Assembly (NCBI GenBank): GCA_965205505.1
Contig: CBDBHB010000006.1
Location: 64,001 to 128,000, forward strand
DNA length: 64,000 bases
Direction: 5' to 3'
Origin: Acidobacteriota bacterium
GTDB lineage: Bacteria; Acidobacteriota; UBA890; WLXD01
A program made the translations under genes and the position numbers. Within the stretch, counting starts at the first letter, position 1. The number at the start of each line of letters is the position of its first letter. Positions 38,010-41,728 of this stretch are shown piece after piece. Below the pieces are notes generated by a model that saw only the letters and a list, made by a program, of their open reading frames with translations, did not search any database and was not told the origin of the DNA.

Positions 38010-38189
38010 ATGAGCAAGAAAACCACAATTCTGGCGGGGCTTGCTGCCACTCTCGGCTCTGTTGTCATCGCGGGTAGCGTCTTCGCCTCGTCGTCGGCCC
38101 AGACGTCGTTCCACGTCTTGTTCAACGCCCTGTTGGCGGGCGACATCGAGGTCGATGTCGAGGGCGCGCGCGCCTCATCCACCAGATGA
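38010..38189 (+). CDS. Small putative exported protein (59 aa), not in the ORF track
   Basis: MSKKTTILAGLAATLGSVVIAGSVFA signal-like N-terminus; ATGA overlap with rsgA. Confidence 0.45.
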   Translation: MSKKTTILAGLAATLGSVVIAGSVFASSSAQTSFHVLFNALLAGDIEVDVEGARASSTR

Positions 38190-39274
38190 GCGCCGGAGCC
38201 GAGCCGATCTCGGTTGGTCGGTTACAGGACTGGGGTTGGAGCGACGAGGTTTCCGCCGGCCTCGGGGAGGACGAAAAGCGGCCCCCGGCTCGGGTGATCG
38301 CCCAGCACCGCGGCGAGTACCGACTCATTGCCCCCTGGGGCGAGGCGACCGGTGTGGCGCCCGGACGCATGCTCTACCGTGCCACCGGCCGCCGCGAGCT
38401 GCCCGCCGTCGGTGACTTCGTGTTGATCGACCCTCAGACCGATGGTCCGGCGACGATCGTCGAGATCCTGCCGCGCAGGACGCAGTTCGTCCGTCGCAAG
38501 TCAGGCACCGAAAGCCAGGAGCAGGTCGTGGCGGCGAACGTCGACGTCGCTTTCCTCCTGACCTCGTTGAACCAGGAGCTCAACCCGCGACGCGTCGAAC
38601 GCTACCTCGTTGCGGCCCGGGAGAGCGGCGCACGGCCGGTGGTCGTGTTAACCAAGCTGGATCAGTGCGACGATATCGAGGCCGCGTTAGCGTGGGTCGG
38701 TCCAGCGACGGCCGGTGCCCCGGTGGTGGCGGTGAGCTCAGTGACCGGAGAGGGCATTGACGAGCTGCGTCGCCACCTGCGCCCCGGATGCACGGTGGTG
38801 TTGCTGGGCTCGTCGGGGGTCGGCAAGTCCACGCTGGTGAACACCCTCGCCGGCGAGGAGCTGCTGCGCACCCAGGAGATTCGCGAGGCCGACGACAAGG
38901 GCCGCCACACCACCACCCACCGCGAGATCTTCCGTATGCCCGACGGCGTACTGGTGCTCGATACGCCCGGGATGCGTGAGCTCGGCCTGGTCGAGGCCGA
39001 GGATGGCCTCGAGGAGACCTTCGACGACGTGGCGGCAATCATCGATGGCTGCCGTTTCCGCGATTGCACCCACGCCGACGAGCCCGGTTGTGCGATCCGC
39101 GAGGCCGTCGGGTCAGGCGTCATATCGATGCAACGATGGGATAGCTACCAGAAGCTGCAAAAGGAGCTTTCCTACGAGGAGCGACGTCGCGACCTCGGCG
39201 CGGCGCTGGCCGAAAAGAGCAAGTGGAGGCAGATCCAGCGCGACTATCGCAAGCGTCCCAAGAAGGGCCGCTGA
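38186..39274 (+). CDS. rsgA: Ribosome small subunit-dependent GTPase A
   Basis: AANVD, TKLD, GSSGVGKSTL, GRHTT, DTPG, CRFRDCTH..EPGC. Confidence 0.95.
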   Translation: MSAGAEPISVGRLQDWGWSDEVSAGLGEDEKRPPARVIAQHRGEYRLIAPWGEATGVAPGRMLYRATGRRELPAVGDFVLIDPQTDGPATIVEILPRRTQFVRRKSGTESQEQVVAANVDVAFLLTSLNQELNPRRVERYLVAARESGARPVVVLTKLDQCDDIEAALAWVGPATAGAPVVAVSSVTGEGIDELRRHLRPGCTVVLLGSSGVGKSTLVNTLAGEELLRTQEIREADDKGRHTTTHREIFRMPDGVLVLDTPGMRELGLVEAEDGLEETFDDVAAIIDGCRFRDCTHADEPGCAIREAVGSGVISMQRWDSYQKLQKELSYEERRRDLGAALAEKSKWRQIQRDYRKRPKKGR

Positions 39275-39318
39275 ACGTCGCGCCGGTTCCGTCGGTTCAG
39301 CGGGCGCGACGCGCCGTA

Positions 39319-39353
39319 AGCAGGCCCGCCGCACTTCCACCACGGCCTGCTAG
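39319..39353. repeat. REP-like repeat flanking the IS110 left end
   Basis: AGCAGGCC...GGCCTGCTAG, near-identical to 58948-58984. Confidence 0.75.
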
Positions 39354-39450
39354 AGGAGATGAGAAGGCCAACCTCCTGAACGCAGTAGCCTGACGGCTCT
39401 GCAAACGTTTCTTCAAACGTAACGGGCTCGAAGCCCAAGGAGGTTGGCCG

Positions 39451-40497
39451 ATGACAAGTGTAACGATTGGACTGGACGTAAGCGACCGGTACAGCCGTAT
39501 GTGCGTGCTCGACAGTAAGGGCAGGGTGATGGAGGAAGGGCGGGTGAGGACGAGCCCGGAGGGGCTGGCGAGGCGGTTCGGGTGCGAGGAGCCCGCTCGA
39601 GTAGTGCTGGAGGTTGGAACGCACTCGCCGTGGATGAGTGAGCAGTTGAAGCAACTGGGTCATGAGGTGCTGGTGGCTAACCCGAGGCGGCTGAAGCTGA
39701 TCTATGGCGAGCACGACAAGACCGACCGGTTGGATGCCGAGCACCTGGCACGAGTGGGCAGAATGGACCCAAAGCTGCTTAAGACGGTGCAGCATCGAGG
39801 CAGACAAGCGCGAGCGGATCTAGCCGTGATTCGGAGCCGAGATGCTCTGGTAAAGAGCTGCACGCAGTTGGTGAGCCATGTGCGTGGTGCGGTCAAGTCG
39901 GCCGGTTGTCGTATTCCCAGGTGCTCGACGCCGGCGTTCGCGCGCACCGCGCCAGAGCACATACCGGAGCGGCTCAAGGGAGCGCTCGAGCCGGTGCTTG
40001 AAACGATCGCCATGCTGACGGGCAACATCCAGCAATACGAGCGTCAGATCGTGCAGCTGTGCCAGGGGCGATACCCGGAGACACAGCAGCTCCAGCAAGT
40101 GGCCGGGGTCGGAGCTCTGACCGCACTGGCATATGTGCTGACGCTCGAGGAGCCGGAGCGGTTCAATACCTCCAGAGCCGTGGGCCCGTACCTGGGGCTG
40201 AGACCGAAGAAACGGCAGTCGGGGGACAAGGACCCTGCGCTACGAATAACCAAGGCGGGCGACAAAATGCTCCGACGCCTGTTGGTGGGCTCGGCGCATT
40301 ACATCCTGGGCCCCTTCGGGCCCGATACTGAGCTCAGACGCTGGGGGCTCAAGCTGGCCGGACGCGGTGGTCCTCATGGCAACAAAAAGGCAGCAGTTGC
40401 TGTCGCCCGTAAGCTCGCCGTTGTGCTGCACCGACTGTGGCTGAGTGGAGACGAGTACGAACCGTTGCGCGCACCTGTAGAGGTTTCAGCAGCATGA
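39451..40497 (+). CDS. IS110 family transposase/recombinase
   Basis: DEDD motifs GLDV, VLEVG, KTDRLDA; C-terminal GVG, YLGL.P...QSG, AVARKL. Confidence 0.96.
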   Translation: MTSVTIGLDVSDRYSRMCVLDSKGRVMEEGRVRTSPEGLARRFGCEEPARVVLEVGTHSPWMSEQLKQLGHEVLVANPRRLKLIYGEHDKTDRLDAEHLARVGRMDPKLLKTVQHRGRQARADLAVIRSRDALVKSCTQLVSHVRGAVKSAGCRIPRCSTPAFARTAPEHIPERLKGALEPVLETIAMLTGNIQQYERQIVQLCQGRYPETQQLQQVAGVGALTALAYVLTLEEPERFNTSRAVGPYLGLRPKKRQSGDKDPALRITKAGDKMLRRLLVGSAHYILGPFGPDTELRRWGLKLAGRGGPHGNKKAAVAVARKLAVVLHRLWLSGDEYEPLRAPVEVSAA

Positions 40498-40743
40498 ACT
40501 AACCCGCAACCAGGAGGTCGGTAGGGCGACGCGACCCAACGGTTATCGATCTGACCGCCCGGTCCGGGCGACTGCGAAGGTCACTACGAGCTTCGAGCTC
40601 GGCAGCTAGATTGCAGCGCCTCGAATCGGGACGGACCCCAGAATGCACCGGACGACCTGAATCCTCGTCCACCAGAGTGCGAATAGGAGCATGGCGTGCA
40701 GATCGATTCTTCGCTGGCCACCACATTGCCCTTGACCGAACTA
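40498..40743 (+). ncRNA. Putative bridge/seek RNA in the IS right end
   Basis: Non-coding end with an internal loop (40572-40616) whose strands match the reconstructed target; boundaries approximate. Confidence 0.65.
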
Positions 40744-40757
40744 GGCCTTCTCATAGA

Positions 40758-41033
40758 AGTGGCCTGAGTCAGGAATCCGTTGCATATTGTGGCGAGCGCG
40801 ACCGAGCCGGATCCCAGGAGGCGCGACGACAGCGATGCAATGAGCATCGTCGAGGAGCGCCGACGCCGGAGGCGGCCGGTCCCGCCACCACCCGGAAGGC
40901 TGGGCCGAGATAGGGGCAATCTCGGCGTTGCGATTCGTCGACGATCGGCGAGGATCGCCATTCTCATCGCGCCTTGAGCTTGCCCCTATCTCGGCCCAGC
41001 AATATGCAACGGATTCCTGACTCAGGACACTAG
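40758..41033. mobile_element. MITE-like element with 32-bp terminal inverted repeats
   Basis: 40758-40789 versus 41000-41031 match 31/32; internal perfect 21-bp IR 40899-40919/40980-41000; no credible coding capacity. Confidence 0.8.
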
Positions 41034-41076
41034 CCACTCATTTGCGCACAGGGTCTTGCGAGGCAATCAGGCTTGC

Positions 41077-41128
41077 TTGACAAGAATAGATAATTATTTA
41101 TATAAGTATTTCTATAATATTTTATCTA
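41077..41128 (+). promoter_or_regulatory. AT-rich promoter/operator of the padR-like operon
   Basis: TTGACA 41077-41082, TATAAG 41101-41106, TATAAT 41113-41118, IR TAGATAA/TTATCTA. Confidence 0.6.
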
Positions 41129-41140
41129 CCAAGGGTCCTG

Positions 41141-41728
41141 ATGAGCCTCGAACACATCCTGCTCGGCATGCTTCGCACCCCGGCGACGGGGTACGACCTC
41201 GGCAAGCAGTTCGCCGATGCCCCGGCCCACTTCTGGTTTGCCGAGCGTAGCCAGATCTACCCGACGCTCAAGCGCATGGAGTCGCAAGGTCTACTCCAAC
41301 GGCAAGAGGCGCCCTCGGAGCGGGGTCCGCGTCGCCAGGTATACGAGACCACGCCGGCCGGACGTGCGGCCTTGCGCCATTGGCTGCGCGGAGGTCCGAA
41401 GATAGGCCGCGAGCGCCTGGGCTACGTAGCACAGACGTTTTTCCTGGGAGAGCTCGGCGACTTCGAGGAGTCGTTACGCATCGTCAAGCAGATGCGCCGC
41501 GAGTGGGCGCAGAAAGTCGCCGCGCTCGAGCTGGCCGAGCTCCAGATGCACGAGGAGTGCGGTGATTGCTCGCGGCTCGACGCCGACGGTTTTCATTACT
41601 ACGCGGCGCTGCGCATGGGGCTACATACCCACCGAGCCCGGATTGGCTGGTGTGACGAAACCATCGAGCAGCTGAACGAACGGATCGCCGAGGCCAGTCC
41701 GCAGCCGGTCGGCGCGAAGGAGCGATGA
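41141..41728 (+). CDS. PadR family transcriptional regulator
   Basis: ILLGML...TGYDL...SQIYPTLKRME..G, Y.TT.AGR. Confidence 0.92.
   Translation: MSLEHILLGMLRTPATGYDLGKQFADAPAHFWFAERSQIYPTLKRMESQGLLQRQEAPSERGPRRQVYETTPAGRAALRHWLRGGPKIGRERLGYVAQTFFLGELGDFEESLRIVKQMRREWAQKVAALELAELQMHEECGDCSRLDADGFHYYAALRMGLHTHRARIGWCDETIEQLNERIAEASPQPVGAKER

Follow-up and report, generated by a model that had tools for sequence, protein, structure and literature searches.

An IS1111-type insertion sequence of an acidobacterium with a predicted guide RNA matching the tip of a CTAG-flanked miniature transposable element

Results

The element and its target site

The DNA analysed here is a 64,000-nt stretch (the window) from an Acidobacteriota bacterium (GTDB lineage Bacteria; Acidobacteriota; UBA890; WLXD01; GenBank assembly GCA_965205505.1, contig CBDBHB010000006.1, positions 64,001 to 128,000, forward strand), and positions 39352-40759 of the window are, by direct reading, a 1408-bp insertion sequence (IS) that starts with AGAGGAGATGAG, ends with CTCATAGAAG and abuts the left tip of a miniature inverted-repeat transposable element (MITE). 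The IS belongs to the IS1111 group of the IS110 family, and it very probably moves by RNA-guided DEDD recombination, with a seekRNA/bridge RNA whose guides specify the target CT-AG-TGGCCT (Table 1). An initial annotation had described it as an IS1111-type element whose putative bridge RNA is programmed to a junction between a repetitive extragenic palindromic (REP) repeat and a MITE; as a known mechanism in a new element, namely an IS1111-type IS with a guide RNA matching the tip of a smaller mobile element, that description was essentially right.

The assignment to the IS1111 group agreed with the anatomy of the element. The transposase scored 64.3 bits (cut-off 29; 1.4e-17) against the Pfam domain DEDD_Tnp_IS110 (PF01548) and 62.4 bits (cut-off 21.3; 5.4e-17) against Transposase_20 (PF02371), and residues D9, E54, D92, D95, S257 and G258 were invariant in an alignment with 15 relatives (16 sequences). 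Its length of 348 aa and its motif GLRPKKRQSG match the 330-350 aa and GL-P----S(T)G given for the group, in which the longer non-coding region lies downstream of the gene (PMC11187229); here, 262 nt are non-coding 3' of the gene (40498-40759) vs 99 nt on the 5' side (39352-39450). Subterminal inverted repeats (sTIRs) of 7-17 bp are described for the group (PMC11208160), and the pair found here, ATGAGAAGGCC/GGCCTTCTCAT, measures 11 bp, with terminal extensions of 7 nt on the left, as also mentioned for ISEc11 (PMC11187229), and 5 nt on the right. Exact sTIRs of 9-15 bp were present in 19 of the 20 rows of relatives with a left end and one of 5 bp in the remaining row (for three further rows no left end was on record), and position 40753 in the right sTIR is T in 6 of the 27 full-length copies of the element in its own genome. 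Insertion is site- and orientation-specific, without target duplication, and only a 2-nt core is shared. A PDB sequence search returned the ISCro4 and IS621 transposases as the only solved relatives, matching weakly in the C-terminal half (IS621, E = 9.2e-8 across residues 188-339). No acidobacterial IS1111-type element appeared in the titles and abstract openings of the matches listed in a literature search for 'IS1111' and 'Acidobacteri'.

Table 1. Coordinates of the element, its predicted RNA features and the flanking MITE (window positions)
Feature	Positions	Strand	Detail or basis
Left half of target, CT (flank) and AG (core)	39350..39353	+	joined with 40760-40765 restores CTAG-TGGCCT
Whole insertion sequence, IS1111 group of IS110 family	39352..40759	+	own-genome matches, Pfam
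Left terminal extension, 7 nt, AGAGGAG	39352..39358	+	includes core AG and bases predicted to face the 5' donor guide
Left subterminal inverted repeat ATGAGAAGGCC	39359..39369	+	direct reading
Structured 5' untranslated region (UTR)	39366..39450	+	12-bp closing stem GGCCAACCUCCU/AGGAGGUUGGCC; fold -48.3 kcal/mol
Transposase gene, 348 aa	39451..40497	+	DEDD D9, E54, D92, D95; GLRPKKRQSG motif
Predicted target-binding stem-loop of seekRNA/bridge RNA	40566..40621	+	17 predicted pairs, 8 compensatory
Predicted 5' target guide AGGUCACUA	40578..40586	+	complementary to top strand T-AG-TGGCCT, one U-G wobble at +3
Inner hairpin CGAGCU-UCG-AGCUCG between target guides	40587..40601	+	minimum-free-energy fold
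Predicted 3' target guide CUAG	40606..40609	+	equals top strand CT-AG, pairs with bottom strand
Candidate 5' donor guide ACCCCAG	40635..40641	+	7-mer directly after conserved GG
Donor-region hairpin, stem GCAC/GUGC (40645-40648/40677-40680) enclosing GGACGA...UCGUCC	40645..40680	+	4 pairs, one compensatory (L031, GCAG/CUGC)
Predicted 3' donor guide AUAGGAG	40683..40689	+	matches right-end ATAGAAG with one G-T wobble
Outward-facing -35, TTGACC	40732..40737	+	22 nt from right end
Right subterminal inverted repeat GGCCTTCTCAT	40744..40754	+	direct reading
Right terminal extension, 5 nt, AGAAG	40755..40759	+	ends in core AG; direct reading
Right half of target, TGGCCT, first six bases of MITE inverted repeat	40760..40765	+	junction counts
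270-bp MITE, 30-bp terminal inverted repeats (40760-40789/41000-41029)	40760..41029	.	direct reading, BLAST

By direct reading, removal of the IS together with one AG restores CCTGCT-AG-TGGCCTGAGTCAGG, and the other MITE terminus (41000-41033), when reverse-complemented, reads CTAG-TGTCCTGAGTCAGG, both as initially annotated. The window MITE thus has CTAG on both sides (39350-39353 with the IS removed, and 41030-41033); the IS occupies its left tip, and its right tip, TGTCCT, is empty. In the genome of origin (5.98 Mb, 9 contigs, 64% G+C), BLAST gave 172 matches to the MITE, 44 of them of at least 240 bp, and the IS had 33 matches, 27 of them full length and 98.3-100% identical and the others fragments. 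Aligning the flanks of the other copies, at 29 left and 31 right junctions, recovered the expected arrangement CT-AG...AG-TGGCCT: the right junctions read TGGCCT in 30 of 31 cases and TGACCT in one, while position -2 at the left junctions was C in 27/29 and position -1 was T in 28/29, the left flanks being otherwise unrelated. Uninterrupted CTAGTGGCCT was found 109 times in this genome vs 13.4 expected from base composition, and the comparison of empty CTAGTGGCCT with occupied CT-AG[IS]AG-TGGCCT, in which AG stands at both ends of the element, indicates simple insertion with a 2-nt core and without duplication. Most of these CTAGTGGCCT sites are MITE tips (CTAG-TGGCCTGTAACAGATGATCGTTGC..., -TGGCCTGAGTCAG..., -TGGCCTGTAGCAG...) or short palindromes of the same sequence, CTAG directly precedes most unoccupied MITE tips, and several insertions lie in non-MITE DNA that shares TGGCCT alone.

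The target is therefore the junction of CTAG and MITE tip and not a REP-MITE junction as such. The claim that the IS is aimed at the end of a mobile element stood, with 109 empty and about 30 occupied sites, and the second repeat family on the left proved unnecessary to it. This unrelated family, whose end (...CCACCACGGCCTG-CTAG) makes up the left flank in the window at about 39309-39353 and which gave 251 BLAST matches, is lacking on the left of other IS copies and so lies outside the target; in the window, the two repeat families meet at one CTAG. The G of GCTAG, initially taken as a recognised target base, did not hold up, position -3 being unconserved among insertions (A8 C2 G10 T9, n = 29), and a reading of -3 by G40605 was dropped, G being present in 10/29 occupied vs 21/109 empty sites, an unconvincing excess. 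A composite of MITE and IS moving as a unit was rejected because the right flanks comprise several MITE bodies as well as non-MITE DNA, and TGGCCT was rejected as part of the IS because empty sites already carry CTAGTGGCCT and occupied sites carry TGGCCT once.

A predicted guide RNA in the 3' non-coding region

The 3' non-coding region (NCR) is predicted to encode an RNA with two short target guides, both displayed in the internal loop of its first stem-loop (40566-40621). Its outer stem GGGCG/CGCCU (40566-40570/40617-40621) is followed by CUGC/GCAG (40572-40575/40613-40616), the internal loop and the inner hairpin. On the 5' side, AGGUCACUA (40578-40586), which extends the initially proposed guide AGGUCACU by A, is predicted to pair with the top strand T-AG-TGGCCT (core and right flank), and on the 3' side CUAG would pair with the bottom strand of CT-AG (left flank and core). 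Both target guides are invariant in the 27 full-length copies, and contigs of four public runs showed no listed difference at guide positions. The guides overlap at the core and are arranged as described for IS1111 seekRNAs, where the top-strand complement comes first (5'), the bottom-strand complement second, and the two overlap at the insertion point (PMC11187229). The strings on which the initial annotation had built its RNA were all in place (AGGTCACT at 40578-40585, GCTAG at 40605-40609, ATAGGAG at 40683-40689, the hairpin at 40587-40601, CTGCGA/TTGCAG at 40572-40577/40611-40616); of the last of these stems, CUGC/GCAG was invariant, and the pairs G40576-U40612 and A40577-U40611 were given up, as they are not conserved and most relatives read AUGGCAG there. 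A closing helix of about 40556-40559 with GGCG at 40693-40696, which looked compensatory by eye in several relatives and was out of register, was also set aside, and no claim is made for it.

For the comparison, a search of the phylum found a homologue at E up to 1e-50 in 22 of 401 genomes, the genome of origin included, with 35-70% identity in the places listed and at least 46% for the full-length relatives used. One further contig of a metagenome-assembled genome (L031) came from a single-protein search of genome contigs and contributed its one locus, and a profile scan of contigs from metagenomes yielded 593 relatives, of which 80 loci were kept. Of the 24 genome-derived rows, one (L065) stems from an unpublished genome, and no result rests on it. 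Motif-anchored extraction left 24 of the 80 metagenome loci without a donor anchor, mostly at contig ends; the 5' guide of one relative (L090) and several 5' donor segments were mis-picked, and the metagenome counts, in which these rows were left, are conservative.

The relatives share an NCR scaffold that runs GGGCG-A-CUGC-G, a variable segment, a hairpin, a second variable segment ending in the core, AU(G/U)-GCAG-CGCCC, GG with a 7-mer, (A)UGCAC, another hairpin, GUGCG-N and AU(G/A)GAA(G/A), and its stem-loop is conserved in about 75 relatives from genomes and metagenomes. RNAalifold, applied to 24 sequences, predicted 17 pairs. Compensatory changes were found in 8 of these, and the CUGC/GCAG pairs were invariant; the outer-stem pairs GGGCG/CGCCU showed 5-9 double changes among these sequences, and compensatory changes were also seen in the inner-hairpin pairs at alignment columns 40-43/76-79.

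Covariation between guide loop and target, proposed at the outset as a check in homologues, was found in both data sets. For the genome-derived elements, the 5' guide matched its own core and right flank in a mean Watson-Crick run of 7.1 (n = 23) vs 3.35 for 496 non-cognate pairings, and runs of at least 8 occurred in 12/23 cognate vs 0/496 non-cognate cases; for the metagenome loci, the mean run was 6.86 (n = 51) vs 3.25 (n = 2544), with runs of at least 7 in 29/51 vs 38/2544. Viewed pairwise, most elements resemble that of the window in having one unpaired base after CUGCG and then 8-10 paired bases through the core. A parallel result was obtained for the 3' guide, which repeats the left flank contiguously from the core (3.5 vs 0.35, n = 22, genome-derived; 4.26 vs 0.35, n = 34, metagenome). 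In four elements the core is AA, and AA likewise stands in their 3' target guide, donor guide and right end, with UU in the 5' guide; the three of them with a left end on record have AA there too.

The closest elements to one another are that of the window, L090 (71% protein identity) and the split L088/L080 (62-67%, from a genome of the same order), and their NCR scaffolds are about 80% identical. The guides AAGGUCACUA/GCUAG of the window element go with the flanks CT-AG-TGGCCT, those of L090, GUGUCCGCGA/ACCUAG, with CACCT-AG-GCGGACA, and those of L088/L080, ACGGACUCUA/GAGUAG, with GAGT-AG-AGTCCG, which is natural reprogramming as reported for ISEc11 and ISXne4. The transposase gene of L088/L080 (C1:3908161-3911885), the closest genome-derived relative, is split by an insertion of about 2.7 kb.

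A natural test of specificity among MITE tips

The guide base facing target position +3 is U, which predicts A (Watson-Crick) or G (wobble) at this position and not T or C. The MITEs provide both G and T variants at +3 inside each of their subfamilies. Among CTAG-preceded tips of the GAGTCAG subfamily, 6 TGGCCT tips were occupied and 0 empty, compared with 0 occupied and 22 empty for TGTCCT; in the GTAACAG subfamily, the corresponding numbers were 13 and 60 for TGGCCT and 0 and 21 for TGTCCT, and in the GTAGCAG subfamily 5 and 5 vs 0 and 3. Genome-wide, TGGCCT accounted for 30 right junctions and 109 empty CTAG sites (139 in total) and TGTCCT for 0 occupied and 87 empty CTAG sites (Fisher p = 2e-7, G vs T), while TGACCT had 1 occupied and 2 empty sites and TGCCCT 0 occupied and 6 empty. 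This occupancy pattern fits the prediction of a guide U at +3. Where TTAG or CTAA stood in front of a TGGCCT-GAGTCAG tip (two cases), the site was empty. As a separate observation, the TGGCCT tips of the GAGTCAG subfamily were saturated (6/6) compared with 13/73 in the GTAACAG subfamily. The 139 TGGCCT and 87 TGTCCT sites, which differ at one guide-facing base, amount to a natural specificity experiment; such one-base discrimination bears on off-target rules for bridge/seek recombinases in genome engineering, and the targeting of the IS explains the frequent interruption of MITE ends in its own genome.

Donor side and expression signals

Two further segments around the hairpin at 40645-40680 would hold the joined ends of the excised circle, AUAGGAG reading the right end ATAGAAG and ACCCCAG probably reading the left end; they flank this hairpin and form no plain internal loop. 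The match of ATAGGAG to the right end, noticed initially, was corroborated in relatives, where the 3' donor 7-mer reproduces the element's final 7 bases exactly in 76 of 77 cases (20/21 genome-derived, the window element being the exception, and 56/56 metagenome, 42 with ATGGAAG and 14 with ATAGAAG), and position 3 (A or G) and the core (AG or AA) change together with the right end. An additional copy of one relative (L083) ends on the right in a variant sequence. The 5' donor candidate in relatives is complementary to left-end bases 3-9: pairing of the left end ATGAGAT with AUCUCAU is perfect in 6 of 14 metagenome loci, with one more pairing over 6 nt and one over 5 nt, and other left ends pair as ATAAAAT with AUUUUA, TAAGG with CCUUA, TGGA with UCCA and, commonly, ATGGGAT with CCCA. 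The element and its two closest relatives combine a CCCA-type 5' donor guide with the left end ATGAGAT. The circle junction initially predicted was that of the window copy, with its left end AGAGGAG; in general it would be CTCATAGA-AG-ATGAGATG, since the other 26 copies have AGATGAG.

An alternative, which we consider unlikely, is that the RNA acts as a short seekRNA guiding target choice only, the ends being recognised mainly through the sTIRs and the protein, so that the AUAGGAG and ACCCCAG matches would have little or no part in this element. This reading is favoured by ISEc11, for which a short seekRNA of 70-100 nt with target matches alone sufficed for transposition and end recognition by the sTIRs is stressed (PMC11187229), and it suits the element's own donor side, where the 5' candidate makes 4 of 7 pairs and the 3' guide a wobble; it is opposed by the agreement of donor 7-mer and right end in 76/77 relatives, by the co-variation of the A/G and core bases, and by compensatory changes between the 5' donor segment and the left end in several lineages.

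Near the right end, TTGAC stands 21-22 nt from the terminus in 23/23 distinct right ends of relatives, and the TTGACC of the element is presumably half of a junction promoter completed only in the circle, where GAAG of the right end and AT of the left end would form the -10 sequence GAAGAT at a spacing of 17-18 nt. Such a junction promoter, with its -35 near the right end, has been shown for ISEc11 (PMC11187229). At the other end, the fold of the 5' UTR (-48.3 kcal/mol) was more stable than all shuffles (z = -6.41, 0/200 as stable); its closing stem ties up the ribosome-binding site, directly upstream of the ATG, in pairing with sequence beside the left inverted repeat, and in relatives the arms have different letters with complementarity kept (by eye), so that the structure is a likely translational block.

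Copies in the genome and state of the family

Position 39355, the fourth base of the left end and within reach of the proposed 5' donor guide, is G in the window copy alone (1/27) and T in the other 26 full-length copies, whose left-end consensus is AGATGAG; the gene of the window copy is intact. Elsewhere, a 4-bp deletion (39716-39719) common to 12/27 full-length copies and a 1-bp deletion (39860) common to 5/27 break the transposase frame, and an unbroken 348-aa match was found at ten places of the genome. Because the frameshifted variant lies at 12 different loci, these copies presumably spread after breaking, served in trans by a working enzyme, or arose by gene conversion. Searches of 4 genomes from the same genus did not find the element, which suggests recent spread, and of 6 genomes from the family's other genera, one alone had a homologue, a distant one at 35% identity. 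In public sequencing runs, at least half of the element's sampled words were found in 17 runs and the stretch or part of it in 20, from 9 studies; in two metatranscriptome runs of one study, assembled contigs span 39534-40766 and 40043-40752, which is no proof of transcription.

A speculative and quite improbable idea is that the element is a tuned hyperparasite, with a perfect match to the rare TGACCT only, that colonises the abundant TGGCCT tips through a single rU-dG wobble and spares the TGTCCT tips of these MITEs altogether; all 27 copies, in addition, have imperfect donor guides (a G-T wobble in the 3' guide, a 4/7 match in the 5' guide). If this were true and the imperfections had been selected, the element would exemplify natural mismatch-tuned activity in RNA-guided recombinases. 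Its imperfect guides would throttle excision or insertion at the same time as a frameshifted copy, unable to move by itself, reaches 12 loci with the enzyme supplied in trans, and they would record in vivo how far a wobble is tolerated at one given position of the guide.

We judge it very unlikely that the family is now inactive in its own genome, so that the pattern records past activity, or that the window copy in particular is immobile. The shared 4-bp and 1-bp deletions (12/27 and 5/27), the T to G change at left-end base 4 of the window copy alone and the lack of a circle junction in contigs of four runs speak for inactivity, whereas the ten unbroken 348-aa matches, the 98.3-100% identity of full-length copies, the failure to find the element in 4 same-genus genomes (which suggests recent spread) and the spread of the frameshifted variant to 12 loci after breaking, with enzyme in trans or by gene conversion, speak against it.

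Discussion

In the mechanism that we propose, CT-AG-TGGCCT would arise wherever a CTAG-flanked MITE has a TGGCCT inverted-repeat tip, so that the IS would accumulate at MITE ends, in one orientation and without duplication. Only in the circle would the -35 near the right end become part of a promoter, from which both the transposase and the RNA would be expressed. We infer that the RNA is made and bound by the transposase, that the circle and its junction promoter form, and that the element is active at present.

Several observations weigh against this account. An Rfam scan of 39000-41300 gave no match at E up to 1, and a single-sequence fold of the NCR, in which the target stem-loop is reproduced, was for 40560-40705 no better than those of shuffled sequences (z = -0.24, 78/200 as good), so that the predicted structure draws its support entirely from the comparison with relatives. 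The 3' target guide is here a 4-nt palindrome, CUAG, which taken alone is weak evidence, and the RNA, its ends and the circle are predictions from sequence. On the donor side, the G-T wobble of AUAGGAG with ATAGAAG at 40687 is fixed in 27 copies and absent from 76/77 relatives, and the 5' donor candidate can form 4 of 7 possible pairs with the element's left end, or 3 of 7 in the window copy. The ends of relatives were set by motif and analogy, not by empty sites, and kin are not independent, so that the counts overstate the number of events. Frameshifting deletions affect 17/27 full-length copies, the window copy has its unique left-end substitution, and no joint of right end to left end was present in contigs of four of the 24 listed runs (two metatranscriptome, one study).

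It is hardly credible that the target is instead chosen by the protein or by DNA shape, such as a palindromic MITE tip or hairpin, with the NCR matches coincidental: the targets are indeed ends of palindromic repeats, short palindromes of like sequence exist (CTAGTGGCCTGTAACAGGCCACTAG), the 3' guide is only CUAG, and REP and hairpin targeting is known for other transposases, but relatives with unrelated, non-repeat targets have guides that change in step with their flanks, TGGCCT insertions occur outside MITE bodies, and TGTCCT tips of the same subfamilies are unused (0/22, 0/21 and 0/3 CTAG sites).

Another IS1111-type element reportedly targets the inverted-repeat end of a large transposon (38-bp repeat); here, by comparison, the target is the tip of a 270-bp MITE together with the adjoining CTAG. 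In most respects the element resembles ISEc11, ISPa11, ISKpn4 and ISPst6 (PMC11187229), with which it shares a DEDD transposase of about 340 aa, the GL-P----SG motif, sTIRs with short extensions, a long 3' NCR, the order of the guides and their overlap at the insertion point, insertion without duplication and a junction-promoter -35 close to the right end; ISPa11 likewise targets a repeated extragenic palindrome (PMC11187229). It differs from these four in its host phylum, Acidobacteriota, and in its target, and the comparison is one of descriptions, in which the seekRNA is demonstrated there and predicted here. With IS621 (PMC11208160; 8wt6 and others), it shares the two-part logic of target and donor guides around a 2-nt core, which read from the opposite strand is CT, with a loop order matching the left and right target guides (LTG/RTG); REP sequences are targets of IS621 in its own host as well, according to the title of reference 6 of PMC13626964. 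IS621, however, is of the IS110 group, with its RNA 5' of the gene, very short STIRs and a simple donor loop, whereas the RNA predicted here lies 3' of the gene and its donor segments flank a hairpin. ISPpu9 and ISPpu10 of Pseudomonas putida are IS110-family elements with an invariant AG at both ends, where the circle is joined, and target REP sequences; they belong to the IS110 group, with the RNA upstream, no sTIR and an extra sRNA module (PMC12288879), none of which was seen in the element.

For the clade of about 75 relatives, the scaffold provides a reading rule: the 5' target guide begins one base past CUGCG, the 3' target guide ends in the core directly before AU(G/U)GCAG, the 3' donor guide follows GUGCG-N and the 5' donor guide follows the conserved GG. 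By this rule, targets of uncharacterised relatives become predictable by sequence alone, and in an element from a little-studied soil phylum each functional part is placed to the base.

Additional observations

The IS and the MITE lie between a gene for an rsgA-type GTPase (38186-39274) and one for a PadR-family regulator (41141-41728). Three pairs of IS copies share a flank on one side only (C6:423090/C6:512430, C6:11749/C6:189957 and C7:9916/C6:423090), which points to recombination between copies, leading to inversions or other rearrangements, or else to duplication of segments. At C9:2875347-2875443, a 98-bp fragment of the left end (94% identical) runs straight into TTCTCAT-CTAG and may be a miniature derivative that keeps just the two inverted repeats and the 5' UTR hairpin.

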